From Thermodesulfobacteriota bacterium (GTDB lineage: Bacteria > Desulfobacterota > Binatia > Bin18), in assembly GCA_964291405.2 (NCBI GenBank), contig OZ219926.1, forward strand, positions 160,001 through 224,000: DNA of 64,000 nt, given 5' to 3'. Positions 10,777-63,225 of this stretch are shown here, piece by piece. The notes below the pieces were generated by a model. That model had not been told where the DNA came from and ran no database searches. It was given only the letters and a program-made list of their open reading frames with translations. The position numbers and the translations under genes were made by a program. The number at the start of each line of letters is the position of its first letter. Positions within the stretch are counted from its first letter, which is position 1.

Positions 10777-10793
10777 CTTACAGGAGCATATCA

Positions 10794-24084: not shown

Positions 24085-24102
24085 GGTTGAGGAAGAGTAA
24101 CG

Positions 24103-24921: not shown

Positions 24922-25129
24922 TATATTTCCTTTTAAATACTCTACCGACAGACTCTCTCACCCCTCCCTGTTCACTCATCTCTCCCAATATAAGGATTCT
25001 CCAGCACAATCCGCCTCAGACCGCTTCTCAAAAGCTTTCCTCAGCACCTGATTCATCGTATAGCTAAGGCAAGCGGGAACCCTCAATAACATAAGACTCC
25101 ACGCTTAGAACAAGCAGACAAGGATTGTT

Positions 25130-27181
25130 ATGCGTATTGCCGTTGATGTTGGTGGCACGTTTACGGACGTGATCCTTCTAGATGAGAAGACCCAGGAACT
25201 GCGACTGGAGAAGGTCGAGACCACGCCGCACAATCCGGCCAGCGGTGTCCTGCAAGGATTTCATAAAGCAGACGCAACACCCAGTGCGATCGACTATTTC
25301 GTGCACGGCACAACCCTGGGACTCAATGCCTTGCTGACTCGCACGGCCGCCCGAGTCGCAATCCTGACTACTAAAGGATTCCGCGACGTATATGAACTAG
25401 GCCGCACAGCCCGTGACCCTATGTATGACCTGACCTACCGGAAACCCAGGCCCCTCGTGCCTCGCTATCTCACCTTTGAAGTGACCGAGCGCCTGGACTA
25501 TCAGGGCAATGTGCTGACCGCCTTTGACGAACAAGAAGCCAGAGCGGTGGCCCATAAACTACGCGAACACGGGGTCGAAGCGGTGGCAGTATGTTTTCTG
25601 CATAGCTACGCCAACCCCCAACACGAACTGGCCGTGCAGACAGTCTTGCAGCAGGAGTGCCCAGGCCTCTTCGTGACGCTGTCGCATCAGCTCAGCCGCG
25701 AATATCGGGAGTACGAGCGGACCAGTACGACCGTGATTGATGCCGGCATTAAACCGATCGTGCGCAGCTATTTGGAGCAACTCGCCGTCGAGTTGCGATC
25801 CGGTGGCTTTGCGGGCCACTTCCTGCTGACGCGCTCAGGCGGTGGAGCCATGACCGTGGTATCGGCAAAAGAACAGCCGGTCCATTTGGTGCTGTCCGGA
25901 CCAGCAGGCGGCGTGATCGGTGCAAGCGCGCTGAGTTCGCTCGTTGGGGCACAGAACCTGATCACGCTAGATATGGGTGGGACGAGCCTAGACGCCTCAC
26001 TCATTGTTAACGGTCACGCACAGGTTGATAACGATGCCGCGTTTGAGCATTTTCCGATTTCCCTCCCTATTCTCGACATTAAGACAATTGGGGCTGGCGG
26101 CGGGAGTATCGGCTGGATCGATGAGGGCGGACATCTGCAAATGGGACCACATAGTGCCGGGTCCGTACCGGGACCAGCCTGCTATGCCAAGGGCGGTCAG
26201 CAACCGACCTTCACCGACGCCGCCCTGCTGGCCGGCTATCTTGATCCGGCCAATTTCCTTGGGGGTGAAATCGACCTTGCTCCAGAGCCGGCCCGCCGGG
26301 TGCTCCAGGAGCGGCTTGCCACTCCGCTGGGTCTCTCCGTGCCCCAGGTAGCAACCGGCATGTTACGCATGAGTGAGGCGAAAATCACCGGCGCGATCCG
26401 TGAGATCTCAATCGAACGCGGCTTTCATCCCGGAGATTTTGCCCTGTTCGCCTTTGGCGGTGGCGGTGGTTTTGTGGCGTCCGGCGTGGCGTGGGAACTC
26501 GGGCTACCGCGCGTGATCATTCCACCCGGCCCGGCAAATTTCTCTGCCCTGGGAATGCTGATGGTCGACGTAGTCCACGATTTTTCTCAGACCTTGGTCA
26601 CCGACCTCCATACGGCGGACCTAGCAGCCATTCGCGAGGCCTATGCACTCTTAGCCCAACAGGGGACGCACGCCCTTGAACAGGATGGCTTCAGCCCCGC
26701 CGACCGACGCCTTATCCGCTCGGCAGAGCTCCGCTACCACGGCCAGGAGCATACGGTGAATATTACCCTCCCTGGGCATGAGATCACGATTGATGACCTC
26801 AGCCGAATGACCACTATGTTTAATGAATCACACCGTATTCAGTACGGTCATAGTATGGACGATCCGATTGAGCTGGTGACGCTGCGCCTGCGTGCGGTCG
26901 GACTGCTCCCGCGCCCTCGCCTACCAAAGATCGCCTCAGGGTCGGGTAGTGTCGAGGTCGCGCGAAAAGGGGAACGACCGGTCTACCGGCCAGGCCCTGA
27001 TCAAAACGAGCATCAAGTCAATTACGCCGTGTATGATCGCCTCAAGCTACGCCGAGCGGATCAGATTGCCGGCCCGGCCATCATCGAGGAGCCGACGTCA
27101 ACCACGATCCTCCATACCGGCGATGCGATGACGGTTGGGGAGTACGGAGAATTAGTGCTGACCATTGGGGAATTGTCCTAA
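25130..27181 (+). CDS. Hydantoinase A / oxoprolinase-like ATP-dependent amidohydrolase subunit
   Basis: AVDVGGTFTD, HGTT, REYERTSTT, SGPAGG, DMGGTS, GAGGGS, PGPACY. Confidence 0.93.
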   Translation: MRIAVDVGGTFTDVILLDEKTQELRLEKVETTPHNPASGVLQGFHKADATPSAIDYFVHGTTLGLNALLTRTAARVAILTTKGFRDVYELGRTARDPMYDLTYRKPRPLVPRYLTFEVTERLDYQGNVLTAFDEQEARAVAHKLREHGVEAVAVCFLHSYANPQHELAVQTVLQQECPGLFVTLSHQLSREYREYERTSTTVIDAGIKPIVRSYLEQLAVELRSGGFAGHFLLTRSGGGAMTVVSAKEQPVHLVLSGPAGGVIGASALSSLVGAQNLITLDMGGTSLDASLIVNGHAQVDNDAAFEHFPISLPILDIKTIGAGGGSIGWIDEGGHLQMGPHSAGSVPGPACYAKGGQQPTFTDAALLAGYLDPANFLGGEIDLAPEPARRVLQERLATPLGLSVPQVATGMLRMSEAKITGAIREISIERGFHPGDFALFAFGGGGGFVASGVAWELGLPRVIIPPGPANFSALGMLMVDVVHDFSQTLVTDLHTADLAAIREAYALLAQQGTHALEQDGFSPADRRLIRSAELRYHGQEHTVNITLPGHEITIDDLSRMTTMFNESHRIQYGHSMDDPIELVTLRLRAVGLLPRPRLPKIASGSGSVEVARKGERPVYRPGPDQNEHQVNYAVYDRLKLRRADQIAGPAIIEEPTSTTILHTGDAMTVGEYGELVLTIGELS

Positions 27182-27199
27182 TACGGACAGGAGAACGCT

Positions 27200-28939
27200 A
27201 TGCAGACGGTCGATACTATTACGGTTGAAGTGATCCACAATTATTTACTGTCCGCTGCCCGTGAGATGAATCGCAACCTGATGCGCACGGCGTACAACAC
27301 GATTGTGTATGAGGTACGGGATTTCGGACTGGGCCTGTATGACCGTCACTGCCGCTTATTGGCTGAAGCGCCGGGGCTGGCGATTTTTACTCGAGCGAAT
27401 GATTACGCGCTCAGAAAAATCGTTGAGTTTCTGGGTGAGGACAATATTCATCCGGGTGACGTGATTTTGCTGAATTATCCGTTCTGGAGTTCGACCCATA
27501 CTCTTGATGTAACGGCTTCATCCCCCATTTTTTATGAGGACCAGTTGGTCGGTTTTACCGCAGTTAAAATTCACTGGCTGGACCTGGACCAGAAAGATGC
27601 CGGTTATTGTCTCGACACTACGGACATGCACCAAGAAGGCTTATTTTTCCCGTGCTCCAAAATCTATAAGCGTGGAGTATTGAATAAAGAACTCGAAGAT
27701 ATCATTCGCTTTAACTGTCGCATGCCCGAGCGGGTCCTGGGCGATATGAACGCCCAGATCTCGTCGTGTCGGACAGGAGAACGACGGGTCCAGGAGCTGG
27801 TTAAGAAGTTTGGTCTTGAAACCTTTACCCAGGCAACGGCACAGATCCTTGACCACGGAGAACGGCTGGCGCGGGCACGTTTGTCTGCCCTGCCCAAAGG
27901 CAGTTGGTCTGCTGAGGACTGGGTGGATGATGACGGGATCGAGAAAGACACCATGCTCAAAATAAAGGCAACCGTGACCATCTCAGAAGACGAGTTGCTG
28001 ATTGATTTTAGTGGCTCTTCCGCCGCGGTCAAAGGTCCGGTGAATATTCCCATCGGGCTCACCATGGGTGTGGGGGCGCTCATATTCAAGGCGATTACAA
28101 CACCGGATACACCGGCCAATGACGGCAACTTCCGTCCGCTGCGAGTTGAGGCGCCGCCGGGCAGCCTGATGCATGCGGTCCCGCCTGCCGCAACGTTTAC
28201 CCTGTGGCCAGGCATCTTGGCGACTGAGGTCGTCACCAAGGCGCTCGCCCAAGGCATACCGGATATTGTGCCCGCCTGTTCGGGGGGAGACCTGTGCTCC
28301 ATGATGGGCGTTGGTACCCACCCCAGCACGGGAAAAATCTGGCTTGAAAGCACGAACGAGGGGGTCGGCTTTGGCGGCCACGTGGGCGGCGATGGTGAAC
28401 ACGGCATTATGCATTTGACAGAACCGGGCTGCCAGAACGTTCCCATTGAAGTCATGGAAACGAAAGCGCCCTTGTTGATCGAACGGTACGGTTTGCGTCA
28501 GGACTCGGGCGGCGCGGGTGAACATCCGGGTGGACTGGGTGTGAGCCGAGCGTATCGATTCCTAGCCGAGGCGTCGGCGTTGACGCTGATCAAAAAGACG
28601 AAAACCCGACCCTGGGGTATGGCGGGCGGTCATACTGGAGAAAATTGTCACGTGATTCTTCGCCCTGGAACAGACCAGGAGCAAACCACCGGGATGGTCT
28701 ATGAAGCTATGGCTCCGGGTGAGGTCCTGGTGAACTGTTCCGGCGGGGGCGGCGGCTGGGGAAATCCGCTGAATCGCGATCCGGAAAAGGTCCTCAACGA
28801 TGTGAGGAGCGAATATATCTCACTGACGAGTGCCAAGCGAGATTATGGCGTCGTTATCGATCCGGACACCTTGACGGTGGAGGCAGCGGCAACCGAGGCA
28901 TTACGGAACGAGAAGAAGACCAGAGCTGGGACGCCGTGA
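27200..28939 (+). CDS. Hydantoinase B / oxoprolinase-like subunit
   Basis: H.LD, HWLD, QEG, PIEVME, DSGGAG..PGGLG, GGGGWGNP. Confidence 0.93.
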   Translation: MQTVDTITVEVIHNYLLSAAREMNRNLMRTAYNTIVYEVRDFGLGLYDRHCRLLAEAPGLAIFTRANDYALRKIVEFLGEDNIHPGDVILLNYPFWSSTHTLDVTASSPIFYEDQLVGFTAVKIHWLDLDQKDAGYCLDTTDMHQEGLFFPCSKIYKRGVLNKELEDIIRFNCRMPERVLGDMNAQISSCRTGERRVQELVKKFGLETFTQATAQILDHGERLARARLSALPKGSWSAEDWVDDDGIEKDTMLKIKATVTISEDELLIDFSGSSAAVKGPVNIPIGLTMGVGALIFKAITTPDTPANDGNFRPLRVEAPPGSLMHAVPPAATFTLWPGILATEVVTKALAQGIPDIVPACSGGDLCSMMGVGTHPSTGKIWLESTNEGVGFGGHVGGDGEHGIMHLTEPGCQNVPIEVMETKAPLLIERYGLRQDSGGAGEHPGGLGVSRAYRFLAEASALTLIKKTKTRPWGMAGGHTGENCHVILRPGTDQEQTTGMVYEAMAPGEVLVNCSGGGGGWGNPLNRDPEKVLNDVRSEYISLTSAKRDYGVVIDPDTLTVEAAATEALRNEKKTRAGTP

Positions 28940-50454: not shown

Positions 50455-51312
50455 CTAGAGCACTTCTTTGGCCAGAGACTCCAATTCTGTGAGGACGGCG
50501 TTCTCGCCGTCCTCACTCTGTGTCAGCCATATGGTGACATGGTCCACGCCAGCAGATTGCAGCTCATTGATTTCCTCTTTGGTGCGAAATTTGCCGGGCC
50601 AGCCAAAGGCGAGGACAGAGATTTCTTTTGGATCGCGGCCAGCCTGTTCGGCCATCTCGTTGAGGCGCTGTCGCCCGGCTTGAATGTCTTCCACAGGGGA
50701 CAGAACCGGCATCCAGCCATCTCCCCATTCGACTACCCGCTTAAAGACGTATTTTGACGAGCCGCCCATATAGACCGGCGGATGAGGTTTTCGTGCAGGT
50801 TTCGGGAAGGAACGGACGGCGGGGAAATCGTAGTACTTGCCGTGATACTCGGCCTCGTCCTGCGTCCAGAGTTCCTTCATGGCCAGGACGGCGTCTTTGG
50901 TCTGTCCCCAGCGGTGATCAAAATCACCCCCCATGATCTCCGTCTCTTCTCTCAGCCAACCTGCCCCGATACCAAAAATGAAACGACCTCCTGAGAAGTG
51001 ATCTAAGGTCGCGACTTCTTTGGCTAATTCAAGCGGATTGCGCTCCGGTATCAGACAAATTCCCGTGCCGAGTTCAATCGTCTTGGTCACGGCCGAGGCC
51101 CGCGCCAACGATACAAACGGATCGGTGATGCGGCCGTACTCGTCTGGAATGATGCCGTCTTCCGAGGCTGGATAGGGCGAGCTGGTTTTGACCGGAATAA
51201 TCGCGTGTTCGGGTACCCAATAGGACCCAAAGCCCAATTCCTCTGCGCGTTTTGCAATGATGGCCGGATCAACCGAGCGATCGATGCAGAACTCGAAAAC
51301 TCCGATTTTCAT
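50455..51312 (-). CDS. LLM-class (probably F420-dependent) oxidoreductase
   Basis: AEELGF..WVPEH, DPFVSLA, LAKEVATLDHFSGGRF.FGIGAGW, GDGWMP. Confidence 0.9.
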   Translation of the reverse strand: MKIGVFEFCIDRSVDPAIIAKRAEELGFGSYWVPEHAIIPVKTSSPYPASEDGIIPDEYGRITDPFVSLARASAVTKTIELGTGICLIPERNPLELAKEVATLDHFSGGRFIFGIGAGWLREETEIMGGDFDHRWGQTKDAVLAMKELWTQDEAEYHGKYYDFPAVRSFPKPARKPHPPVYMGGSSKYVFKRVVEWGDGWMPVLSPVEDIQAGRQRLNEMAEQAGRDPKEISVLAFGWPGKFRTKEEINELQSAGVDHVTIWLTQSEDGENAVLTELESLAKEVL

Positions 51313-52188: not shown

Positions 52189-53874
52189 TCACGGCAGGGT
52201 AAAGACCGCAACAGCGCTCCCCGGTGTGGTGTGGGGATATTTGCCCACGATGTCCACGACCAAGCCTCCGGCGCCACTGGGAACGGCAACGTACTGTTTA
52301 TCCCCAACCTTGTAGGAGACCGGTTGTCCTCGAACCGCGGATCCGGTCTGAAACTTCCACAAAACTTCGCCCGTTGCGTCATCTAAGGCTAGCGCAAATC
52401 CCTTTTGATTGCCCGTAAAGACGAGTCCGCCAGCTGTGGCGAGCGCGCCCCCCACCATCGGCCACTCGTCCTTATAGCGCCACTTCACCTCGCCGCTGGT
52501 CGGGTCTATGGCCGTGACGTGGCCGTAGGCCGTACCGAGGTCGCCCTGCGTTTGTCCGGGCCCTCCGCCCCAGAATGGGATACCCTTGATAAAAATAGAC
52601 CTAGCCTTTTCCATTTTGCCGCAGCTCTCGATCGTCGGGACAAAGATGAGGTTAGCCAGCGGACTGTAGGCCGCGGCATACGAACCGTTTTGTCCTCCTA
52701 CGTTCCCGGGACAGATGAGTTCAGGATTGCCACCTTCCATGGGCACGTACTGGGGGTCAACGATCGGACGGCCATTTTCATCTAGCCCTTTCGCCCAGTT
52801 GAGTTGCTCAACATACTGGGAGCCATGCAGAAACTTCCCATCCCCACGATTCAGGACATACATATACCCATTCCGATTGGGCTGGGCTAAGGCTTTAACA
52901 GACTCCCCACTGCGCGTGACGTCGAGCAGAAACATGCCCGTGTTGCCATCATAGTCCCAGACGTCGTGTGGGGTGAATTGGAAATACCATTTGATCTCAC
53001 CACTGTCTGGGTCAAGGGCTAACGCCGAGTTCGTGTAGAGATTATCGCCCTCACGTCCATCACCGTTCCAGTCAGGGGCCGGGTTGCCCGTTGCCCAATA
53101 CACCAAGTCAAGGTCTGCATCATACGAGCCAGTCACCCAGGCCGGACCACCGCCTTGTTTATACGAATCACCGGCCCAGGTCTCGACACCGGGCTCGCCT
53201 TCGTCAGGCACGGTATAACGACGCCACTTGCGCTCCCCAGTCTCAAGATCATAGGCATCGATATAGCCACGAATACCGTATTCACCGCCCGCAATACCAA
53301 CAATGACGTTATCTCGAACAATCAAGGGTGCTAGGGTAAAGCTAAAGCCACCCGCATAGTCGTCGGCTTTAGTATTCCACACGACAGTACCGGTTTTTCT
53401 GTCGAGCGCGACAATACGCGCATCCAGGGTAGCCATAATGACCTTATCCCCAGCCAGCGCCGCGCCCCGATTACCCGGCCCGCAGCAAATCCGCATATCA
53501 TCTGGCAATTCATGATCGTATTTCCAGAGCGGTTTACCCGTTGCGGCGTCTAAGGCAAACAGCTTATTGTAGGCCGCAGTAAGATACATGACGCCATCGG
53601 CAACCACCGGTGAGGCTTGCATTTGTGCCGGCACGCCGGTTTGGAAAATCCAGGCGGCCTGGAGTTTTTTGACGTTCCCACGGTCAATATCCTTCAGTGG
53701 GCTGAATCGCCAGCCGGCATAATTCCCGCCGTACATCAACCAGTCATTGGCCGGCTCCTGGAGTAAGCGCTCCTGCGTCACCGGCTGAAGCGCGTCGGCG
53801 TAAAGCGCGCCGGGAGAGAGAAACATGAGAGTGAATGCTATTGCTAAAAATTTCCACGACCAGGAACCTCGCAT
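52189..53874 (-). CDS. PQQ-dependent alcohol dehydrogenase, methanol/ethanol family, predicted lanthanide type (PedH/ExaF-like)
   Basis: Signal peptide, vicinal ICCG, GGEYGIRG, TGNPAPDWN, PHDVWDYDG with the extra Asp. Confidence 0.9.
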   Translation of the reverse strand: MRGSWSWKFLAIAFTLMFLSPGALYADALQPVTQERLLQEPANDWLMYGGNYAGWRFSPLKDIDRGNVKKLQAAWIFQTGVPAQMQASPVVADGVMYLTAAYNKLFALDAATGKPLWKYDHELPDDMRICCGPGNRGAALAGDKVIMATLDARIVALDRKTGTVVWNTKADDYAGGFSFTLAPLIVRDNVIVGIAGGEYGIRGYIDAYDLETGERKWRRYTVPDEGEPGVETWAGDSYKQGGGPAWVTGSYDADLDLVYWATGNPAPDWNGDGREGDNLYTNSALALDPDSGEIKWYFQFTPHDVWDYDGNTGMFLLDVTRSGESVKALAQPNRNGYMYVLNRGDGKFLHGSQYVEQLNWAKGLDENGRPIVDPQYVPMEGGNPELICPGNVGGQNGSYAAAYSPLANLIFVPTIESCGKMEKARSIFIKGIPFWGGGPGQTQGDLGTAYGHVTAIDPTSGEVKWRYKDEWPMVGGALATAGGLVFTGNQKGFALALDDATGEVLWKFQTGSAVRGQPVSYKVGDKQYVAVPSGAGGLVVDIVGKYPHTTPGSAVAVFTLP

Positions 53875-53920
53875 GAGTAATGCCTCCTCAGAGTGATTGC
53901 CAATCGAAAAATGTGGTCGA

Positions 53921-53949
53921 ACCCTACTGATTTTTATACCAGAGGTCAA
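53921..53949 (-). promoter_or_regulatory. Putative sigma70 promoter for the PQQ-ADH gene
   Basis: TTGACC-17 bp-TAGGGT on the minus strand in the AT-rich gap, about 45 bp before the ATG. Confidence 0.4.
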
Positions 53950-53979
53950 GAAAGAGGACACTGCATACGCCCCAGACTC

Positions 53980-54708
53980 TTAGGGAAAGAGGCGTAATCT
54001 TCTCCCCGCGAAGAGCACCCCGACGATACCGAATAAAACGATCGCTCCGTGCGTCCAGCCGTTCCAGACAAGTACATACGGGTCTCGCAGACGCGGTCTG
54101 GTTACGCCGGGAATGCTGGGAAGATCTCCATCTCCAGCGCCCACCTTAAGCTGCGCCTTCATTCCCTTTTCCATATGCTGAGGAACGTCACAGTGCACTA
54201 AATAGGTCTTGTCTCCGGGTGGGAGAATAAAAGTGCTTGTCCGCTGTCCTTTACCTGCCACCTCAAGCGTAAACATGCCCATGGGGTAGATATAGCGTGG
54301 CAGACCGTGCAGCATCCACTGGTGACGAACGGTGTCCGTATTGATGAGCGTTACCGTGAGTTTCGTACACGGCGCAAAACTCCATTCGTTTCGATCATAC
54401 GCAAACATCGTCCCCGGCTGGGCGAATTCTTTGCCGGCACGAACAGTGATCTCGTGTTCACCAGAGAGACGTGGACAGCCTCTGGGGAGTTGGTCCGTGT
54501 TTTCATTCATCACCATACCCGCAGTATCGAGATGCATGCCATGATGCGCATGATGATGGTGAGACTCAGGCTCTTGAGTCGAACCAACCTCACTGGAAAG
54601 CAAGACAAACAAGGTGCATACGACCAGTGTAGAGACAGTCTTCTGGAGTTGCCCTCCCCGGAACACCCCTGCCCTCTTCTGACTATTTTTCCTCAGAAAA
54701 AATCCCAT
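53980..54708 (-). CDS. Membrane-anchored cupredoxin (type-1 copper) with His-rich N-terminus
   Basis: HHHHAHHGMH; HQWM...HCDVPQHMEKGM type-1 ligand set; C-terminal TM helix. Confidence 0.82.
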   Translation of the reverse strand: MGFFLRKNSQKRAGVFRGGQLQKTVSTLVVCTLFVLLSSEVGSTQEPESHHHHAHHGMHLDTAGMVMNENTDQLPRGCPRLSGEHEITVRAGKEFAQPGTMFAYDRNEWSFAPCTKLTVTLINTDTVRHQWMLHGLPRYIYPMGMFTLEVAGKGQRTSTFILPPGDKTYLVHCDVPQHMEKGMKAQLKVGAGDGDLPSIPGVTRPRLRDPYVLVWNGWTHGAIVLFGIVGVLFAGRRLRLFP

Positions 54709-54720
54709 CAAAGATTCCTC

Positions 54721-56415
54721 TTAGCGGTATCGAACTCGTCGCTTGCTCAAGGCGAAGGCCGCACCGATAAGGAGACCGATACCTATTCCAAGTATGAGGG
54801 CATAACTCAGGGGTAGGGAACGAGCGCTGGCCTCCCCAAGCAGACCGAAGTCCTTCAGTCCGGCCCAGATGGGAAGCTTTTTTTGATAATACTCCTTGGT
54901 GAAAAACGGCGCCCAGTCCATCCCCTGTGTTTTCGGCTGACCGGATGTATCCAAATAGTCCTGGTAGACAATGGCGCTAATATTTCCACCGGGGTTGATC
55001 CCATCAGTGGTGATCGCTTTTTCCTTGTGGTCGTGGAGCAGCCAGACGCCTGGCCCATAATTGTGCAGGCCGTCATCAGTGGTGTTGAGAAGAAGGTCCA
55101 CCCGTTGGGCCGGGCTAATCCAGACCACATCACGAGTGATTTGTGCAGCCGGATTATGTTCGACACCATCATAATGCGTCAGTGTGACTTTATGCCCATG
55201 CGTATGCAGAGAAACGCCTTCTGCTCCGCCGTTGAGCACACGCAGTTTGACACGTTCATTCGGAGCAACAACAATCAGCGACTCACGGGTCGTGTAGGGA
55301 AAGGAGCGGCCGTTGAGTAGGAAATAGTCGGGGTCTTGATCTGTAATATCATAGCGGCGGTTGGTCGCCTCGGCGATCAACCGGGGATCACCTGCGGTCT
55401 GAATAATATTATTCAACGCCGGGTCAATGTCCTGGTAGTGCAAATCGAATTCCCGGTCATAGGACTCTCTGACTGCTGCGGAGACAGCGCGTACCCGGCC
55501 AGCCCCAATATTGAGCGTTTGAAGCCAGTTATTCGGACGGTTGTCCTCAACCACAAACATTCCCTGGAGCCCCATCAGAATATGGACATGCGGTTGGACG
55601 TGACAGTGATAAAACATCGTCCCCGTTTGACGCGGAGTCATTTCATAGGAGCGGCTTTCCCCTGGTGAGACTGGCATTTCGCTCGCAATCGGCACTCCAT
55701 CATTTCCCTCACCAGTGGCGTCAACAAAGGGATGGTCAACCCCGTGGAAGTGTATGGTGTGTGGCAGATAGTGCGTATTCTCCAAGGTTACCCGGAGCGT
55801 ATCACCCTGCTCTACACGAATCACCGGAGACGGGGCTCGCAAGGTCGGATGTGCCCACTCGCTCTCAAAATTTTCAGTCGCCATACCGCGTGATTTTGGT
55901 GCGAAAACCCACAGCCCTGGCTGGACACCCGGCGCAATGGCGTAGGCGGGAAACGGTGCAGGATCATCCGGCGAGTGCCCATTCAGTTCTACGACTTCAA
56001 GCCGGACATGAATCTCGTCAGGATCGCCATCCCCGTCTCTGTCGTTCTCTTTTACCACGGTATTTGGCGTCAGCCGGGTCTCCATAAGGGTGTGTAGACT
56101 AATATTATTCGTTCCTTTGACAAAGGCCGCAATTTCGGCCGGATTATCTGGGTCACACACGGGTGAGGCTTCTATGGTAACATCTTCAAGCGTCTGAGAC
56201 TCCCGCCAGTCTGCATGTCTGTCCAGACAGAATGGCTCCACACTGACAGGGCTTATTTGACGGCTGGGGGGTGGCTCCTGGTAAGACTCTTCACCAAGAT
56301 ATTGATACGCAATGTCTTGTATTGGGCGGGGGAGCCAGGTACGCGGCACGAGAAAGAGTGTACCGATAGCAAGCACACTAAGCAAAAAGAAGAAAAGCAG
56401 ACCGCGGAGCCACAT
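54721..56415 (-). CDS. Membrane-anchored two-domain multicopper oxidase
   Basis: HTIHFHG, YHCHVQPHVHILMG, LHTHGH, LLHDH; hydrophobic helices at both termini. Confidence 0.88.
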   Translation of the reverse strand: MWLRGLLFFFLLSVLAIGTLFLVPRTWLPRPIQDIAYQYLGEESYQEPPPSRQISPVSVEPFCLDRHADWRESQTLEDVTIEASPVCDPDNPAEIAAFVKGTNNISLHTLMETRLTPNTVVKENDRDGDGDPDEIHVRLEVVELNGHSPDDPAPFPAYAIAPGVQPGLWVFAPKSRGMATENFESEWAHPTLRAPSPVIRVEQGDTLRVTLENTHYLPHTIHFHGVDHPFVDATGEGNDGVPIASEMPVSPGESRSYEMTPRQTGTMFYHCHVQPHVHILMGLQGMFVVEDNRPNNWLQTLNIGAGRVRAVSAAVRESYDREFDLHYQDIDPALNNIIQTAGDPRLIAEATNRRYDITDQDPDYFLLNGRSFPYTTRESLIVVAPNERVKLRVLNGGAEGVSLHTHGHKVTLTHYDGVEHNPAAQITRDVVWISPAQRVDLLLNTTDDGLHNYGPGVWLLHDHKEKAITTDGINPGGNISAIVYQDYLDTSGQPKTQGMDWAPFFTKEYYQKKLPIWAGLKDFGLLGEASARSLPLSYALILGIGIGLLIGAAFALSKRRVRYR

Positions 56416-56498
56416 CGTTCAACATGTACTGTGAACAGGGCGTTCGGGAAAGGGGGGCTGTCCGGTTCCGCAGCTATCCCTTGAGCGGGGTCGAGACT

Positions 56499-57029
56499 TT
56501 ATTTCATAGAAAACGGTGGCCAACCGCGTTTACCACCGACAACGTAATAACCCACGCCACCGCCAATAAGCAGGCCCGCGATCAAGACCAGCATGGTATT
56601 TGAGAGAGAAGCGACGCGGATTGGAAACCGCACCGCCCCATCAACCCCGTCAACTGTCATCAGGGCCGTGTACTGTCCGGGCGTATCAAAATTGACTTCA
56701 GCGTTCACTACACCGCTAGGATATACCCGCGCCGGAATATCGAGTAACAGTCGCGGTTCAGCCGCATTGGTTTCCTCAATAATACGAACCGCGGCCGATT
56801 TCTTACGCAATTCAGGATCAATCAGATCAAAAACGAGAATCGCACTCCCAGTCTGAGGAACGCTCCGACAGAATTCCTCGGTTGCGTATTCCTGCGGTTG
56901 GTAGGCGGAAAAATGGACCAGATAGACGCCTGCCCGCTCTACGCAGGGGTCCAGGTCCATGGCGACACCCCCATGTCCCCAGGCTCCTATTGGGACAAGG
57001 AGCATGGCAACAAGAAGGAACAGTTTCAC
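56499..57029 (-). CDS. pmoD: PmoD/AmoD-family copper protein (downstream copy)
   Basis: Signal then HGG..DPC...HFSAYQP...EFC..VP.TG..ILVFDL.D.ELR; C-terminal TM helix. Confidence 0.85.
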   Translation of the reverse strand: MKLFLLVAMLLVPIGAWGHGGVAMDLDPCVERAGVYLVHFSAYQPQEYATEEFCRSVPQTGSAILVFDLIDPELRKKSAAVRIIEETNAAEPRLLLDIPARVYPSGVVNAEVNFDTPGQYTALMTVDGVDGAVRFPIRVASLSNTMLVLIAGLLIGGGVGYYVVGGKRGWPPFSMK

Positions 57030-57081
57030 AGCGCTGTCCAGTTGTGCTCCAGAGCGGGACGTGGGCTCCCCACTCTAGATC

Positions 57082-58342
57082 TTATGGCAGATAGGTTGAA
57101 CGAAACTGAGTGGGGACGACATTTGAACGGACCGTCACCAACTCATGCCCCTCATTCCCATTCTCAAAGCGTAAGACTGCGCCAATAAACTGTTGCGGCG
57201 CTTGCGTCGGGATGAGACGTTCCTCACCGAAAAGACTGCTTGAAACAGTCAGGGTCAGCTCTTTTGTTTCGTCCCGGAGTAATCGGTCCGTCCGGCTGTA
57301 CTTCGAGGCGACCCACAAAATCACGCGGACCGGCCTTGGCTTGCTCGGCTTCCGGTCCGTTCACAAAGGTCGCCATTGCTATAGTCAACTGCTTGAGTTC
57401 GATGTCGCTCTCGGCAACATTCGTCACCTGGACCTTCATCTCAAGCGTTTCACTCGCTTCGTCATATGTCGCTCCGCTGGCCTGTGCCTCGGCCATCTTT
57501 TCACCAGAAGAAATGAATTCCGGTGTAAACCAGTCCGTTTGCTGCGGCCACCGAACCGGCGCATTTGAGGTGGCGTACGTCCAACCGATAACCAGCATTA
57601 CCAGGGTTACGCCCACGATAACATTCATCCACATATGATCACGGGGCGTGATGAGACCGATATCGGGAGCATCATCGTTCACCGGAAGCTGGACAGTAAC
57701 GGCAAGATTGGTCACTGTTCTTTTGTTTGTCGTCCAGTACAGTATCCAGGCGACCCCCAGGACAAACCCGGCAAACGACCACCACCAGACGAATGCGCCG
57801 CCATACGTACTGAGCTCAATCGTCTCACCGGACAGCAGGGTGAGCGGGAAGGAGAACGGCTCCGCGCTGGGTTTGACGGTCACCCATTCACCGGGTCCAA
57901 TCAGGGTGCCGGTCCCGTATACGGCGATACCGGGATGGACATGCCAGTTCCCAGGCTCTTTGCCAACAAGCTCCATTTCAAACTCGTAAATACCCCCCTT
58001 TTGGGCAAAGAACGATCCAATCGCAGCCGTTCCGTTGACAAAACGCTCTTTGAGCACAAAGACCGGTCCGGGGACGACCGGCATAATGGAAGCGATTTCC
58101 GGCGTTTCCAGCGTATGAGGCCACGTCTCGAGAATCTTGACCGACCCCGTAACCTTGACCGGCTCTCCAACCTCAATTTCAGTCGGCGACACGCTGACAT
58201 TGAAGAAAGCCGTGGTCATGTTTTTCAAAAACGGTTCGTCGGCAGCCTCACCGTGGGCAAAAGCGTTCGGAGTATGAGTAACGACAACGGCCACTATGGC
58301 ACATAGTGCGCCAACACAGCCAATCATAAATCGCTTACCCAT
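57082..58342 (-). CDS. xmoB: Copper membrane monooxygenase subunit B (PmoB/AmoB family), split by a 1-bp frameshift at about 57271
   Basis: Signal then HGE.A.EPFL, WHVHP, GPG.WVTV, two TM helices; the C-terminus (ETKELTLTV...EERL) continues in another frame to 57082. Confidence 0.9.
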
Positions 58343-58676
58343 CGGCTGCCCTCCTGGTTTCAGGCTGCTCGTCTGGGAGTTGGAGCTTGGTTTCTATGAC
58401 ACGCAATCGGGGCTTACGCTTGATGCGAATAGCCGGACCCGTTTCCGGCGACCCGCGTCCGTCCGTCTCCACACCTTTCGATGCTGGCCACAAAACCACC
58501 AGCCAGTAACAGACAAACGCTAAGATACTCGCGGTAATGACGGGCGGGGCTATTTCAGAGATATTCATACCGTGCGCATACACGGGAGAAGGAAACAGAG
58601 ACAGGCCGGCAAGAAGAGCCATGAGCACAGAGCAGACTCTTCCGTATTGGGCGGGCTGCTGAGGTTCGAAAGACAT
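58335..58676 (-). CDS. Small membrane protein of unknown function between xmoA and xmoB
   Basis: RBS GAGGT, signal-like segment ending VYA-HGM, one TM helix, charged tail; stop overlaps the xmoB start. Confidence 0.7.
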   Translation of the reverse strand: MSFEPQQPAQYGRVCSVLMALLAGLSLFPSPVYAHGMNISEIAPPVITASILAFVCYWLVVLWPASKGVETDGRGSPETGPAIRIKRKPRLRVIETKLQLPDEQPETRRAADG

Positions 58677-58695
58677 ACCGCACCTCATATTTGTC

Positions 58696-59499
58696 TCACA
58701 CAGTTTTCAGATAGCGCCGAATCGGCCACACCGCCAGATACCGACCAATAAACTGACCGATCCAGTAGCCAGCAAAAGCCGCCGTTCCAGCAAAGGCCAG
58801 CGAAACGTATTGCGTCTCACCCAGGAAACTACGCAACGCGCCGCGTTCAATCAGCCGGAGGTATTCTGGAGTTTGAGAGCGGATATAGGCAATACCCTGA
58901 ACATCAGCAACCGTCACCACATGGTCCATAAAATAGGCCGGCTGGAGAAAGGCAGCTAGGGGGACGTAATTATAGGCCCACACCGCAATCGCCCACACGT
59001 GGGCGCCGATCAGCGAGGTGAGGATAAAACTCTTGGTCTTCATTAAGGTCCAGTCCATCAAGATCCCGGCGCAGACGACGGAGGCAGGCCACACGAAGTT
59101 CATAGGGTAGGTCGCTGCGAGGTCCCACTGAAAATACCGCCCAACCCAAGCCGCAAAAAACAAGCAACACGCAGTGTAGGTCGCACCAGTCGGAAAGCGC
59201 CAAGCCGTCCACTGGATGTATTGCAGCGTCGAGGGAATAATGATCGTGGCAAAGGCCGTGACCACAGGCCACCACTGTGGGTCTTTCCAATCTGTCCAGA
59301 AATCCCAGTCACCGGCAAATAACTGCTTGGTGATATCAGCGGCACCTGCTACCACAAAAACCGCCGTAGTCCAGAAGACAAGGTCCCACTTCCAATCAAC
59401 CCATTTATATTTCTTGTTGAGCAGTTCTTTGAGTTCGAGCCGCCGTTGCCGTTCCGCCGCATCTGCGATGTCGGTTACGGTTGTGGTTTCCGTCGCCAT
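58696..59499 (-). CDS. xmoA: Copper membrane monooxygenase subunit A (PmoA/AmoA family), divergent
   Basis: GDWDFWTDWKD, RFPTGAT, YPMNFVWP, ADVQG..YIRSQTPEYLRLIERGALRSF. Confidence 0.95.
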   Translation of the reverse strand: MATETTTVTDIADAAERQRRLELKELLNKKYKWVDWKWDLVFWTTAVFVVAGAADITKQLFAGDWDFWTDWKDPQWWPVVTAFATIIIPSTLQYIQWTAWRFPTGATYTACCLFFAAWVGRYFQWDLAATYPMNFVWPASVVCAGILMDWTLMKTKSFILTSLIGAHVWAIAVWAYNYVPLAAFLQPAYFMDHVVTVADVQGIAYIRSQTPEYLRLIERGALRSFLGETQYVSLAFAGTAAFAGYWIGQFIGRYLAVWPIRRYLKTV

Positions 59500-59563
59500 G
59501 CGCACTTCCTCTCTGCACGAGGATTTTCGATCCGTTTATCGACCAAAGCCCACACCGCCGTTA

Positions 59564-60412
59564 TTAGTCGGCGGCGATCGGCGACTCAAGCGAGGCTTCC
59601 GGGTTCGTATCCTCTTCGATCTTCTCTATCTCGAACATGCGCACCAGCGTCTCGCCCCACACGGCAAACATGCCTGCCGCAAGCCAGCCATAAATCACAA
59701 ACGGCCAGTGGAATGGAACAGAGAAAATTTCCTCGGAGATCCACAGGCTGTGGCCCCATTCATTTGCGGCAACCGCCATGCATTCGAGCACACAGGCGCT
59801 GATCAGCAGAAAGAACGACCAGGGAAATCCTTTGTCTCTTCCGTACAGCGCAGGAATATGGAACCGCCCGTAGATATAGGTCCCAACGGCCAATATGACC
59901 GAGAGGGGGAAGAAAAAGTAGAACATCGGGATATGGGTCGGGGTGAATGCCGTGTCACGAACCATGGTTTGGTGCCACGATCCATCCCAGTTCGGCCAGA
60001 AGCTGGCCATCAGATAGATAGCCAGACTCGTCGCGCCAATGAGGCTCCACAAAATCGCAATCCGGCGCGTCTCTTCGGCGGGTGAGCATTCTTGTCCTTC
60101 AATGGCCCGGCCATTCCGGATGAGCCAGCCCAACCACACACCGCTGAATATGCCTAAGACAATCAGTTCACCCCAGAACAGCGTCCAGTAATACATCGTG
60201 AATTCAGCGCTTGCTGAGTTCAGTCCGGCGGAGAACATAAAGGCGTAGTTCCAGTACCAGAAAAAAACATTGGCCAGCATGATCAGCCCGCACCCCCAGA
60301 AGAGAGGGTGCCAGCCGACTGACCAATCAGTCGGATTGGCCGGGTTGCCAGTTGTCATGGAACCATCGCCGGAACCTTTTGGTGCATTTTGTACTGCTTG
60401 CGCCTGAGCCAT
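59564..60412 (-). CDS. xmoC: Copper membrane monooxygenase subunit C (PmoC/AmoC family), divergent
   Basis: GLNS.S.EF..YW, DGSWHQTMVRDTAFTPTHI, NEWGHSLW..EE.F..PFHW.FV. Confidence 0.95.
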   Translation of the reverse strand: MAQAQAVQNAPKGSGDGSMTTGNPANPTDWSVGWHPLFWGCGLIMLANVFFWYWNYAFMFSAGLNSASAEFTMYYWTLFWGELIVLGIFSGVWLGWLIRNGRAIEGQECSPAEETRRIAILWSLIGATSLAIYLMASFWPNWDGSWHQTMVRDTAFTPTHIPMFYFFFPLSVILAVGTYIYGRFHIPALYGRDKGFPWSFFLLISACVLECMAVAANEWGHSLWISEEIFSVPFHWPFVIYGWLAAGMFAVWGETLVRMFEIEKIEEDTNPEASLESPIAAD

Positions 60413-60462
60413 GCCTATTCCTCCTCGATAGTAATAACGATGTTACTGTATACTCTCTTTCT

Positions 60463-61035
60463 TTATTTCACCAGTTCTTCTCTACCCCGAGCAGTGATCT
60501 TATAACGAATCACCGAGACCGCAAGAACGATAACCACTCCAAGGGTAATCAGCGCTGGTCCGACTAAGGCCTTATACCATGCCGCAACCTGAAAGGGAAA
60601 TGCAAATTTGCGCGGTTCACGTTCATCAGCAAGTCCGAGCATCACACGCACTTCGTAGCGTAGCCCTGCCTTGACAACGACTTCAGCGTTGGCCACGCCA
60701 CGTTCATATACTTGGAAAGGCAGGGACAGGACCGTATTCGACTGTCCGGGCTCATCTGAGGCAACGAGTTCAACACCGAACGGCATTTCCCACAGGTCGG
60801 GCGTCACGTCCACGACCAGGAAGGCATTCCCCACACGCGGGATTTCCTCACAATACTCCGTAACCGGGTCGAATTGAGTCTGATAAAACGTAATATGCAA
60901 GAGCGAAGCACCGACCTCCCGTCGGCATGGGTCTCCAGGCCCCCTGTCTCGATGCGCCCAGGATGACGCGGGAAGCACCAGGCAAAGCGTCACTACTACA
61001 GCGAGAAGAGAGGAGATTCGGCGAGTTCGTCTCAT
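60463..61035 (-). CDS. PmoD/AmoD/AmoE-family protein (upstream copy)
   Basis: Signal then HRD..DPC...HITFYQ...EYCEEIP..G...LVVD; C-terminal TM helix. Confidence 0.78.
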   Translation of the reverse strand: MRRTRRISSLLAVVVTLCLVLPASSWAHRDRGPGDPCRREVGASLLHITFYQTQFDPVTEYCEEIPRVGNAFLVVDVTPDLWEMPFGVELVASDEPGQSNTVLSLPFQVYERGVANAEVVVKAGLRYEVRVMLGLADEREPRKFAFPFQVAAWYKALVGPALITLGVVIVLAVSVIRYKITARGREELVK

Positions 61036-61124
61036 CGGTCGGTTCTTACAGAATTTCGGCATTGACCAAAGGCCCTGAGATAGCAGGATGAAAGAGTAGG
61101 GACAACTCCAGAACATAGCATTAT

Positions 61125-61970
61125 CTAAGGAAGGGAACGATCAATATCCATAAAGAACGAGAGGAGGACCGTATTGAGCGGGGGCCACTGCCGATGGGTA
61201 CCAGTTCCTTCACAGTATATGGTTTTGCTATTTGTCCTACATCCTGAGTAAGCCACACAGCCATTTTCATCCTTCTCAACCGAACCGGACTGACACTCGT
61301 TACACGCAGCCAGCCAGGAAGCCGCCTCAGCCCCGTAGCCGGGGAAAAGATGGTCGTTAGCACTGTGCATAATCAGAACAGACAATGCTTCGGGACACGA
61401 GAAGGTTTCGAGGTCGGTCCGTCTGAACCCGGCGGCGCTCGGCGCCACCGCTGTCGGGATATGGCGTGTCTCGTCTAAAAGCGCGAGGGCCAGGGCAACC
61501 GTGCCACCATCAGAGTGACCGGTCAGATAGACCCGCCCTTCATCAACACACCACTTTTTGGCGATAAGTCGCGGGATCGTACCGAGTTCGGGAATAACTT
61601 CAAGCGAAAGGCGGCGTGAGTCGGCATAGACGACAACGAAGCCCGCCGTCGTTGCCGCAAAAGTCAGGTCTGTCAGGCGCTCGGAGCGAAAACGACTTGA
61701 GCCTGCCGGGGCATAGACCATGATGAGGGGGTGGAGAATGCCTGGGTTGTAGTTGGCGGGCGTCCGAACCATATATTTAATCCCGTGTTCGGTCTGCTCG
61801 TCGTTACTCAGCCCACCCGAGCCGCTCCGCTCGCCGAGCGGACACGGCCCAGTGCTGAGGGCATGGTCATATTCGTACCGGCCTAACTTCGGGGGTTCGC
61901 TTGGCAGTCCAGAACACCCCCAGAGGACGAGCACAACGAGACAGAGCGTCCGGCACTGGGGCCTACTCAT
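61125..61970 (-). CDS. Alpha/beta hydrolase lipoprotein (PHB depolymerase/esterase-like)
   Basis: Lipobox LWGC, VRTPANY, YLTGHSDGG, HSAND, H.QWP. Confidence 0.8.
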   Translation of the reverse strand: MSRPQCRTLCLVVLVLWGCSGLPSEPPKLGRYEYDHALSTGPCPLGERSGSGGLSNDEQTEHGIKYMVRTPANYNPGILHPLIMVYAPAGSSRFRSERLTDLTFAATTAGFVVVYADSRRLSLEVIPELGTIPRLIAKKWCVDEGRVYLTGHSDGGTVALALALLDETRHIPTAVAPSAAGFRRTDLETFSCPEALSVLIMHSANDHLFPGYGAEAASWLAACNECQSGSVEKDENGCVAYSGCRTNSKTIYCEGTGTHRQWPPLNTVLLSFFMDIDRSLP

Positions 61971-62109
61971 CAATATAGGGCGACAGCCGCGTCTCTCCGC
62001 TTGTCCCACTGGCCCTCTCCTGCTTGCCGCGTCAATACGTCTCAGTTTATACTGCAAAAGTTCTCATCCTGCTCTATCTGAGGGAACAGCACTTGGTAAG
62101 GAGGGATAT

Positions 62110-63225
62110 ATGCTCTCAGTTTTTTCAGCCCCAAGCCACTACGTACAGGGGAGGAACGCCACCGCGGCCCTAGGAACGGAAATGCAGCGCATCGGCCTAC
62201 GGGGGCCAGCGTGTATTGTTGCCGGGAAAAGTGCCATTCGGCTGCTTTCAGAAGTCTGGCAGAAACATTTGAACGATGCCGGCATCACCCATGTCGTCCA
62301 CCAGTTCGGGGGAGAGTGCTCCTATCCTGAAATCGAGCGTATCAAAGAAACAGCACGAGAGAATAAGGCTCAGGTCATTATTGGAGCGGGCGGTGGCAAG
62401 GTCTTGGACGCGGCCCGGGCCGCGGCAGACGACCTTGATCTTCCCGTCGTCAACTGTCCGAGCATTGCCTCAAGTGACGCACCGTGCAGCGCGCTGTCGG
62501 TGATCTATACCCCCGAGGGGGTATTCCAGGAATATCGCTTTTATCGAAAAAACCCAGACTTGGTTGTCGTGGATACCTATGTTGTCGCCCAAGCTCCAGC
62601 CAGGCTGCTTGTGGCCGGGATGGGAGATGCGCTGGCCACGTGGTTCGAGGCTAAAACCTGTGTTGCCGGCCACGTCCAGAATATGCGTGGTGGAGCCTCA
62701 ACGCGCAGCGCCGAAAAGCTGGCGGAGCTGTGTTACAACATCTTGGTTGAGGACGGCCCGGATGCCAAACGGGCCGTGGAACGGCATGTTGTCAATCCAG
62801 CCCTGGAGCGGCTGGTAGAAGCCAACACCCTGCTGTCGGGTTTGGGCTTCGAGTCCTCGGGCCTTGCCGCGGCCCATGCCATCCATAATGGTCTCACCGC
62901 AGCTCCACTCACCCATCCGTACTATCACGGGGAAAAAGTCGCCTATGGCCTGATGGCCCAGTTGGTGCTCGAAGGTCAGCCACGCTCGGTTATCGATCCG
63001 GTGCTGGAGTTTTCATCCGCGGTCGGTCTGCCCATCACTCTGGCCGAGATTGGGCTCAGCGAATTCTCAGAGGATATGCTTGAACAAGTCGCAGCGCGGG
63101 CGACCGCGGAAGGCGAAACCATCCATAACGAACCGTTTGACGTCCAGCCCGACATGGTTGCCGACGCCATTCTGGCCGCGGATTCGATGGGCCGCGCCTG
63201 GCAGGCCACGCACGAGGCACAGTAA
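62110..63225 (+). CDS. gldA: Glycerol dehydrogenase
   Basis: PSHYVQG, FGGECS, GGGKVLD, DAPCSALSVIY, GDALATWFEA, GLAAAHAIHNG, HGEKVA; start refined to ATG 62110. Confidence 0.93.
   Translation: MLSVFSAPSHYVQGRNATAALGTEMQRIGLRGPACIVAGKSAIRLLSEVWQKHLNDAGITHVVHQFGGECSYPEIERIKETARENKAQVIIGAGGGKVLDAARAAADDLDLPVVNCPSIASSDAPCSALSVIYTPEGVFQEYRFYRKNPDLVVVDTYVVAQAPARLLVAGMGDALATWFEAKTCVAGHVQNMRGGASTRSAEKLAELCYNILVEDGPDAKRAVERHVVNPALERLVEANTLLSGLGFESSGLAAAHAIHNGLTAAPLTHPYYHGEKVAYGLMAQLVLEGQPRSVIDPVLEFSSAVGLPITLAEIGLSEFSEDMLEQVAARATAEGETIHNEPFDVQPDMVADAILAADSMGRAWQATHEAQ

Follow-up and report, generated by a model that had tools for sequence, protein, structure and literature searches.

A copper membrane monooxygenase gene cluster with linked copper proteins and a quinoprotein alcohol dehydrogenase in a sponge-associated Candidatus Binatia genome

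Copper membrane monooxygenases (CuMMOs) have been described in the Binatota. According to the text of the published survey (PMC8262859), the subunit genes occur in CAB, CAxB or CAxxB order, pmoD is present in 5 of 11 genomes, some genomes hold two CuMMO copies, and the enzymes were placed either with TUSC cluster 2 or with actinobacterial and SAR324 sequences, a placement like that of hydrocarbon monooxygenases (HMOs). By published trees, the actinobacterial HMO is the nearest characterised kind. In the portions available, a 2026 preprint (10.64898/2026.02.02.703227) lists 'putative pmoA Binatales' among hydrocarbon monooxygenases and reports that methane-processing modules are missing in Binatia metagenome-assembled genomes (MAGs); the HMO-like placement and the missing methane modules appear briefly also in PMC11264602 and PMC12533140. 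Sponge Binatota transcribe pmoA, which the published text interprets as methane oxidation (PMC9999580). A cluster of comparable make-up, pmoCAB3-pmoD-GMC, is known from Methylacidiphilum sp. IT6. By the text of that study (PMC8630023), its PMO3 converts acetone to acetol, and 2-propanol, acetone and acetol are all oxidised, with the GMC oxidoreductase as the proposed enzyme for 2-propanol and acetol. Here these systems are compared with a CuMMO gene cluster in a 64,000-nucleotide stretch (contig OZ219926.1, positions 160,001 to 224,000; hereafter the window) of a marine, sponge-associated Candidatus Binatia MAG whose genome is 97.5% complete.

The locus shares its core with what has been published. 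It comes from the same phylum as the surveyed Binatota enzymes, has the C-A-x-B order with a hypothetical gene (x) between xmoA and xmoB, carries pmoD and is HMO-like. The enzyme core, the C-A-x-B order and pmoD in Binatota are thus known, as is transcription of pmoA by sponge Binatota, and the original prediction of an undescribed system went too far in this respect. What was not found in print is the extended operon, a universal x protein with an N-terminal histidine, and the alternation of dehydrogenase partners among relatives. In the literature searched, which did not extend to figures and supplements that may hold gene maps, neither the accessory set nor a linkage to GMC dehydrogenase in Binatia was found described, and x appears as no more than a 'hypothetical protein'. 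The text of PMC8262859 differs from the present locus in that it names neither a multicopper oxidase nor a cupredoxin, brings in pyrroloquinoline quinone (PQQ) only for XoxF, and calls x just 'hypothetical'. The words 'multicopper', 'cupredoxin' and 'pmoD' have 0 occurrences in 10.64898/2026.02.02.703227 and PMC11264602, and 'multicopper' and 'PQQ' have 0 in PMC12533140.

The cluster consists of ten minus-strand genes that run from 62057 down to 52189. In the order from operon start to end, they encode an esterase, a PmoD-family protein (D1), XmoC, XmoA, x, XmoB, a second PmoD-family protein (D2), a two-domain multicopper oxidase (MCO), a cupredoxin, and a PQQ-dependent alcohol dehydrogenase (ADH). 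Searches of Pfam, NCBIfam and the PDB confirmed the gene list originally drawn up for 52189-63225, namely all ten of these genes and the divergent gldA. The genes are tightly packed and either overlap or are separated by gaps of 7-105 nt. The strongest terminator-like hairpin of the region (52157-52136, minus strand) lies directly 3' of the ADH stop codon, and a terminator-like hairpin occurs only there; it has a 9-bp stem with 5 G-C pairs and a T-rich tail, and is a consensus match only. Because of the tight spacing and the hairpin directly after the ADH stop, the ten genes appear to fit one operon. A promoter scan gave no signal (6 sites against 7.0 expected).

Where would the products of these genes act? 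The translations contain a hydrophobic C-terminal helix in each of D1, D2, the cupredoxin and the MCO, and a hydrophobic helix in the middle of x. These helices suggest that all of the products but the soluble ADH and the lipoprotein esterase are membrane-tethered and face the periplasm. The idea of a CuMMO with an expanded, periplasm-facing accessory set is thus supported by family matches, PDB matches and synteny. Runs labelled as sponge metagenomes contain the stretch, and six RNA libraries contain part of it. RNA-library contigs from two studies span xmoC, xmoA, x, xmoB and parts of the ADH gene. Most of the MCO, cupredoxin, D1 and esterase genes have no RNA-library contig cover, which is no evidence of their silence.

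The core of the cluster is a CuMMO (XmoCAB) because families A, B and C were all matched: XmoC (59564-60412) matches PF04896 (3.6e-43), XmoA (58696-59505) matches PF02461 (2.4e-52), and XmoB (57082-58342, read through a one-base insertion near 57271-57272) matches PF04744 (1.6e-65). In XmoC, D143, H147 and H160 together with N217, H221 and H235 are invariant in 25/25 alignment rows and align with the DGxWH..TPxH and NEWGH..H motifs of solved PmoC (4phz, 3rfr). In XmoB, H29, H133 and H135 (the N-terminal His and HxH) are also invariant in 25/25 rows. We take these motifs to be the CuB, CuC and CuD sites. Judged by these alignments, the predicted copper ligands of a CuMMO are all kept. The locus thereby resembles particulate methane monooxygenase (pMMO) and ammonia monooxygenase (AMO), whose PmoB and PmoC ligand sets it retains, and it also has a PmoD-family gene after xmoB.

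The original prediction took xmoB as it stands and overlooked the inserted base, which cuts the gene short. In the window, the xmoB open reading frame (ORF) has 372 codons and then a stop, the last ~60 codons lie in another frame (ORF 57082-57324), and the Pfam match of the window ORF ends at profile position 328/380. Such an ORF could point to a decaying pseudogene cluster, an explanation that is barely credible given the other evidence. The extra base is absent from 9/9 aligned relatives, and 18/18 closest relatives have a single xmoB open frame of 429-454 codons from stop to stop, their XmoB as one ORF being 414-424 amino acids. In sequencing runs, the base is dropped at 57271 or 57273 in every covering contig of 3/3 runs (X1, X2 and the RNA library X16). 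The contig depth without the extra base was 62.7 of 62.7 in X1, 2.6 plus 5.78 of 8.39 in X2, and 7.4 of 7.4 in X16. The X1 contig differs from the window at eight nearby positions too, and a strain mixture at this spot is therefore likely. The remaining genes of the locus are all intact. Because the extra base is missing from relatives and from the covering contigs of all three runs, the frameshift is read as an assembly consensus error or a minor allele and not as gene decay. Single-base indels recur in such assemblies, as three loci from long-read MAGs (L042, L080, L082) have split frames in xmoB or x too.

How is this enzyme related to characterised CuMMOs? The XmoA is 42% identical to HmoA of Mycolicibacterium chubuense NBB4, 45% to that of Rhodococcus sp. 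WAY2, 43% to that of M. dioxanotrophicus, and 38% to the pxm-type copy of Methylomagnum (PxmA). Closer named relatives are found in Caldinitratiruptor (71%), Dormibacteraeota MAGs (67-69%), Carbonactinospora (65%) and Lentzea (64%). Among 1.8 billion proteins, no full-length 50% representative was more than 49% identical to XmoA. A collection of species-representative genomes yielded 80 loci whose XmoA is 73-100% identical to that of the window; almost all of these records bear the title Candidatus Binatia, Binataceae or 'delta proteobacterium'. Four of the loci (L031, L039, L043, L069) are titled Enterobacteriaceae, Klebsiella pneumoniae or Verrucomicrobiae and carry Binatia-type xmoCAxB with XmoA at 76-88% identity; they are probably mislabelled or misbinned MAG contigs. 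In a quick 108-row XmoA tree (LG+G4, SH-aLRT only, few named anchors, long-branch warnings; PmoA3, Nocardioides BmoA, SAR324 and TUSC left out), the Binatia sequences form one clade of 82 rows (SH-aLRT 100). It is nested in an 89-row clade with Caldinitratiruptor, Dormibacteraeota, Carbonactinospora and Lentzea, on a stem of 0.6. NBB4 and Rhodococcus fall in a separate starred clade, and the window's clade also stands apart from the pXMO row and from the row with PDB-like PmoA lengths. On these sequence comparisons, XmoA lies in an uncharacterised, HMO-like clade of Binatia, Dormibacterota and Actinomycetes.

Membership in the bacterial pMMO and AMO equivalogs was not found for XmoA, XmoB or XmoC. 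In contrast to pMMO and AMO, all three subunits score below the NCBIfam methane/ammonia monooxygenase cut-offs: 192 vs 290 and 160 vs 318 bits for A, 247 vs 336 and 178 vs 395 for B (truncated ORF), and 159 vs 319 and 142 vs 281 for C. The hmoCAB genes, which lie on plasmids in NBB4 and WAY2, likewise encode a three-subunit CuMMO with an ADH gene (mdo) nearby. However, they are contiguous C, A and B without x, their XmoA is 42-45% identical to that of the window and lies in the separate clade, and no PmoD, MCO or cupredoxin is annotated within their ~5-6 kb flanks. With x between A and B, the present enzyme does not belong to the NBB4-type HMOs. The C-A-X-B order is also known from Ca. Angelarchaeales, whose genomes are rich in blue copper and two-domain cupredoxin proteins, but that CuMMO is archaeal and, by the figures given in the paper's text, very distant in sequence (PMC9038741). 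The genome studied here holds a second CuMMO, with XmoA at 35% identity to the first (G000:C3:2793973-2797000; L085:7973-11000, minus strand). It is a plain contiguous CAB set that lacks x, PmoD, MCO and cupredoxin genes. This second XmoA shares 97% identity with the representative of a 211-member cluster, and three LLM oxidoreductases, a Zn-ADH and a TIR-domain protein are encoded next to the CAB genes.

The small gene x (58335-58688) has 117 codons and encodes a single-pass membrane protein without a Pfam or NCBIfam match. It is present in 77/77 loci with room for it; its motif occurs in 74/77, and a hidden Markov model (HMM) finds the other 3, two of which are split over frames. With this HMM, no match came up in the loci of NBB4, Rhodococcus, Methylomagnum or the second copy (best E 0.23; NBB4/Rhodococcus best E 0.48-1.6). 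A profile search returned 649 homologues, none with a Pfam domain and all annotated 'hypothetical'; those with an organism name come from Binatia and Methylomirabilota. In an alignment of 19 diverse orthologues, A38-H39, P49, Y61-W62 and W67-P68 are invariant. A38-H39 would be a signal-peptidase site, so that mature x would start at the invariant His; the predicted mature protein has this N-terminal His, then one transmembrane (TM) helix and a basic tail.

Further information on x comes from structure prediction of a complex of XmoC, XmoA, XmoB and x residues 39-100, run alongside three controls. The complex score with x was 0.44 (runs 0.37, 0.57, 0.44) against 0.00 for the best control; a control with another protein in the place of XmoB likewise gave 0.00. 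The partner had a pLDDT of 53 or higher, and contacts agreed to 63% or more. The prediction is rated as weak support. On the reading favoured here, x is most likely a fourth, membrane-embedded CuMMO subunit that contacts XmoB and turns its N-terminal His to the periplasm. Precedents exist, as pMMO and AMO structures show small extra TM helices and archaea have AmoX, AmoY and AmoZ (PMC13058606, in the portion available). The 'exogenous helix' of pMMO/AMO differs from x in being a 23-residue ORF, whereas x is a 117-codon operon gene with an invariant N-terminal His.

Are the accessory genes kept together with the monooxygenase? Counts were made in position windows over those relatives' loci that offered enough room. 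D1 was present in 55/72 loci, D2 in 25/71, the MCO in 29/67, the cupredoxin in 27/64 (an undercount, missing L035, L038 and L039), the esterase in 25/70, a divergent gldA in 25/65, and an F420-dependent oxidoreductase in 24/60; the ADH lay downstream in 19/60 and upstream in 6/60. In L026, the ADH is on the opposite side, beyond gldA, and the linkage therefore survives rearrangement. All 32/32 MCO-bearing loci fall inside one starred 42-row clade of the quick XmoA tree, in which three state changes suffice. At the level of genomes, the MCO orthologue occurs in 54/401 genomes of the class: 48/54 in the window's family, 1/1 in family f112 and 4/8 in f113. The window's XmoA type occurs in 79 of the 401 (a count that includes the unpublished genome G595), including 27/94 in family f5, without the MCO there. 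Of the 54 MCO genomes, 50 have this XmoA type, and in 41, counted by eye, both genes lie within 5 kb on one contig. A phylum-level sample contained 14 genomes of the class and was uninformative. The MCO, tethered cupredoxin, PedH-like ADH and esterase are thus syntenic in one subclade, and a lack of synteny in relatives, which would have spoken against the system, was not observed.

Lineages without the MCO have a different partner. Beside their xmoCAxB lies a three-gene GMC dehydrogenase, in which a GMC large subunit is accompanied by a small subunit of the gluconate-2-dehydrogenase type and by a cytochrome c. It is found in 41/80 loci, upstream or downstream, with the large subunit at 71-100% identity. 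The PQQ-ADH is found in 25/80 loci, and both enzymes occur together only in L041. Therefore, 65/80 loci tie the CuMMO to a periplasm-facing dehydrogenase. At L047:4890-9081 and in 40 other loci, xmoCAxB is flanked by genes for the GMC dehydrogenase and for a PmoD-SCO1/SenC fusion. Six loci (L047, L052, L055, L056, L058 and another of that group) have a YtcA-HlyD-FUSC-OEP efflux set behind xmoB. By gene content, these arrangements recall the Methylacidiphilum IT6 cluster as its text describes it, where the CuMMO genes are linked to pmoD and to the gene of a periplasm-facing dehydrogenase that acts on the oxygenated product. The relatives share with IT6 the GMC large and small subunits (41/80 loci), and the window's operon adjoins a diol/hydroxy-ketone dehydrogenase, gldA. 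The window differs from IT6 in having a PQQ-ADH instead of GMC, and in its MCO, cupredoxin, x, esterase and second PmoD.

The operon ADH (52189-53874; ORF extendable to GTG 53961) is a PedH-like, lanthanide-type PQQ enzyme. It matches PF01011 (2.7e-89) and TIGR03075 (596 bits against a cut-off of 480). PedH is its nearest solved relative (6zcv, 3.8e-126, 425 bits), ahead of XoxF (4mae, 1.3e-101, 344 bits), and it is therefore not placed with XoxF. Its WDYDG aligns with WDFDG of PedH, and the CC pair is kept, as in the PedH/ExaF type. The extra Asp two residues after the catalytic Asp has a role in lanthanide binding. No cytochrome c gene was found in the operon by family search of the window's proteins. 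The genome has five PQQ-ADHs over the family cut-off. One of these five is a true XoxF (G000:C3:3220835-3223975; L087:2836-5975), with 788 bits to 4mae and ~3 Mb from the operon, followed by one gene that fuses solute-binding (SBP_bac_3, XoxJ-like) and cytochrome c domains. That the operon ADH is of the ethanol type while a true XoxF lies elsewhere favours a non-methane product. The genome also has an array of PQQ-like beta-propeller paralogues (G000:C3:1102335-1111816), made up of five ORFs of 640-692 codons in tandem, every one of which matches the PQQ-ADH profile over its first half only (88-97 bits).

Four further products of the operon are copper proteins by sequence. D1 (60463-61116) matches PmoD structure 6cpd with an E of 5.5e-4 and has a signal peptide, and D2 (56499-57029) matches it over residues 29-131 with an E of 7.5e-10; both have C-x9-H...C and a C-terminal TM helix, and they are 28% identical to each other (E 8e-18). 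Both Cys and the His of 6cpd are kept in D1 and D2, which places them in the PmoD/AmoD family. However, the CuA-forming motif C-x7-M-x-H-xn-C (Cys41, Met49, His51) was not found, as both have Leu at Met49; the missing Met sets them apart from the PmoD of pMMO and AMO. A tested member of the C-x9-H class bound copper without forming CuA (PMC6189053). D1 is 43-50% identical to the N-terminal part of the PmoD-SCO1/SenC fusion of relatives, and having this fusion as D1 counterpart in sister lineages points to copper delivery.

The MCO (54721-56415) matches Cu-oxidase_3/2/1 and has hydrophobic N- and C-terminal segments. Its best PDB matches are two-domain enzymes (2zwn, 6e-32; 3g5w, 3.5e-30), and with its HxH and HCH motifs it belongs to the two-domain class. 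H219/H222/H224, H270-C271-H272, H278, M281, H404/H406/H408 and H461/H463 are invariant in 10/10 rows. From the motif positions, we take it to be 'type C', with the type-1 (T1) copper in domain 1. The membrane-tethered cupredoxin (53980-54711; weak Pfam match, 8.5e-4) has T1 ligands H130, C174, H179 and M184 invariant in 10/10 orthologues, and H57 and the GMVMNEN of its His/Met-rich N-terminal stretch are invariant in 10 rows. In its AlphaFold2 (AF2) model, the core has pLDDT 73-90, and helix 218-238 would form the C-terminal anchor. Foldseek matches (E ~1e-6) are auracyanins (1qhq, 2aan), AcoP (7z3b) and pseudoazurin, and CueO domains too. The His/Cys/His/Met set in a modelled cupredoxin fold identifies the protein as a type-1 cupredoxin of the kind found in electron carriers.

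The first gene of the operon (hyd, 61125-61970; ORF extendable to TTG 62057) gives a weak Pfam AXE1/Abhydrolase match. GHSDGG (Ser153), D206, H259, the lipobox Cys19 and 8 further Cys are invariant in 10 orthologues. Its AF2 model (pLDDT 72.8) matches feruloyl esterase 8jh8 (E 1.5e-13, TMt 0.76), acetyl xylan esterase 9j07 and PHB depolymerase 8daj. The earlier call of a hydrolase lipoprotein thus holds for the lipoprotein, and triad and predicted fold refine the function to a carboxylesterase. A role as epoxide hydrolase was rejected, as the nucleophile is the Ser in GHSDGG and the fold matches carboxylesterases. On the other side of the esterase gene, gldA (62110-63225, plus strand) encodes an NAD-dependent dehydrogenase of the glycerol/1,2-propanediol type (NF006941, 494 bits against a cut-off of 336); it stays below the cut-offs of the glycolaldehyde reductase model (452 bits) and the propanediol/glycerol dehydrogenase model (406 bits). 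The plus-strand ORF has 490 codons and overlaps the esterase gene, and its Fe-ADH match begins at residue 127; the gldA start is therefore most likely 62110. The downstream neighbour of the operon is an F420-dependent LLM-class oxidoreductase (50455-51312, minus strand; TIGR03619, 257 bits against a cut-off of 167), which in relatives such as L026 directly follows the cupredoxin gene.

Other genes of the window lie farther from the operon. A tungsten-type aldehyde:ferredoxin oxidoreductase is encoded at 3175-5883 together with a 4Fe-4S dicluster protein, an uncommon find in the neighbourhood of aerobic oxygenases. A Rieske ring-hydroxylating oxygenase alpha subunit and then a double EthD-domain protein are encoded at 9080-11483, and a BrnA antitoxin-like ORF at 11442-11789. 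The segment 15104-21286 holds neighbouring genes for two CoxL-like large subunits of molybdopterin hydroxylases (800 and 853 amino acids) and one for a CoxM-like FAD subunit. Three hydantoinase/oxoprolinase-family genes (A-like, 536 amino acids; A, 683; B, 579) lie at 22474-28936, behind an S-Me-THD-like gene. An acetone carboxylase was considered for the hydantoinase A/B genes (25130-28936), but they are 25 kb off and their sizes fit hydantoinase/oxoprolinase.

What does the operon do? The reading favoured here, which we place just on the likely side of even, is a hydrocarbon- or ketone-type CuMMO that acts on a small C2-C4 compound, is coupled to a periplasmic step oxidising its product and is served by copper helpers. 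XmoC-XmoA-x-XmoB would hydroxylate a short alkane, an alkene or a ketone such as acetone, and the resulting compound would be oxidised in the periplasm by the PedH-like PQQ enzyme. As the operon has no cytochrome c gene, the electrons of the ADH would leave via the cupredoxin; from there, they could enter the respiratory chain, return to the monooxygenase or reach the MCO. The two PmoD-family proteins, which are of the non-CuA class, may load or hold copper, and the dedicated copper proteins would provide metal supply and possibly electron return. The gldA product and the F420 enzyme may process diol or hydroxy-ketone products in the cytoplasm. The gene identities, ligand conservation, synteny and clade placement, and the absence of the frameshift from the reads, are established; substrate, electron path and the roles of x, PmoD and the MCO are inferred. 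Several points weigh against this reading. XmoA is just 42-45% identical to the characterised HMOs compared, and xmoB is frameshifted as assembled. The RNA-library contigs may derive from DNA carry-over. The x-XmoB prediction is weak, and by its calibration such a pass is more often wrong unless likely beforehand. The cupredoxin model is mediocre (mean pLDDT 65.6, TM-scores 0.3-0.64), and the MCO, PmoD and the cupredoxin with its His/Met-rich stretch might have no task other than copper homeostasis. In the 97.5%-complete genome, pqqC and pqqE were not found (best 30 against a cut-off of 240 bits, and 68 against 381). The operon ADH would therefore need outside PQQ, and five PQQ-ADH genes without pqqC and pqqE suggest that the organism depends on such a supply. 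Finally, the genome does encode XoxF, and sponge Binatota pmoA has been taken as methane oxidation.

One alternative starts from this last point: the enzyme would be a pMMO, part of a methane sink in sponge Binatota, that passes methanol to the XoxF elsewhere in the genome, with the operon ADH as a second methanol/formaldehyde oxidiser. The published text on pmoA transcripts (PMC9999580) supports it, as do the XoxF beside its fused XoxJ-like/cytochrome c gene, a report of PmoD only in methane- or ammonia-oxidiser genomes (PMC6189053), and methanotrophic Actinomycetota reported in accessible parts of other papers. We nevertheless consider it distinctly unlikely, given subunit scores below the equivalog cut-offs, a clade apart from the pXMO and PDB-like PmoA rows, an operon ADH that is PedH-like and not XoxF, relatives that link a GMC dehydrogenase instead, and the placement of Binatia MAGs carrying these genes among HMOs, without methane-processing modules, in the available part of 10.64898/2026.02.02.703227. 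The original statement that the substrate is probably neither methane nor ammonia was overstated, being an inference. Ammonia would be the substrate if the CuMMO made hydroxylamine, the MCO oxidised it and the cupredoxin carried the electrons, as proposed for copper-based ammonia oxidation in archaea. The second-best solved relative of the MCO, 3g5w, is presumably a Nitrosomonas europaea enzyme and would fit. The archaeal literature, as far as its accessible text goes, adds an MCO that oxidises NH2OH to HNO (PMC13058606) and CuMMOs accompanied by blue copper proteins (PMC9038741). The alcohol and diol dehydrogenases linked to the operon, the GMC dehydrogenase of relatives and the scores below the bacterial AMO cut-offs make this explanation highly improbable; no nitrification genes were seen within the window, and the rest of the genome was not searched for them.

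Two further alternatives concern the copper proteins. In one of them, there is no electron path: the operon would be a copper supply or detoxification set, in which the MCO is a cuprous oxidase, PmoD and the cupredoxin are carriers that load XmoB and XmoC, and the ADH is a passenger. The counterpart of D1 in the PmoD-SCO1/SenC fusion (SCO1 being a copper chaperone family), the C-x9-H with Leu at Met49 in D1 and D2 (a class whose representative bound copper and formed no CuA, PMC6189053), the invariant His/Met-rich stretch of the cupredoxin and its CueO matches are all consistent with this. Against it stand the invariant T1 site of the cupredoxin, a trait of electron carriers, the ADH linkage that is kept in two different arrangements (for example, in L026), and the dehydrogenase that occupies this place in sister lineages and brings its own cytochrome c; this alternative is rather doubtful. 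The other is a cytochrome-free copper circuit, in which the PQQ-ADH oxidises the CuMMO product and reduces the cupredoxin, electrons return via PmoD and/or x on XmoB, and the MCO serves as oxygen-reducing overflow. GMC dehydrogenase with its own cytochrome c would be the equivalent in sister lineages. We regard this complete circuit as quite unlikely.

If the copper circuit were true, it would answer the long-open question of the electron source of CuMMOs, and the repeated swap of the partner dehydrogenase would mark direct coupling as a selected trait. The favoured reading of a CuMMO acting on a small C2-C4 compound bears on the ecology of the host. It is from this gene family that a methane sink in sponge Binatota has been proposed. 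For the present copy at least, the operon context speaks for a substrate other than methane: its linked ADH is PedH-like and not of the XoxF type, in relatives the linked enzyme is a GMC dehydrogenase, and the gene of a diol dehydrogenase is adjacent. The proposed carbon loop would change accordingly. More generally, the locus provides a genetically defined set of candidates for electron and copper delivery to CuMMOs and for small extra subunits of the complex.

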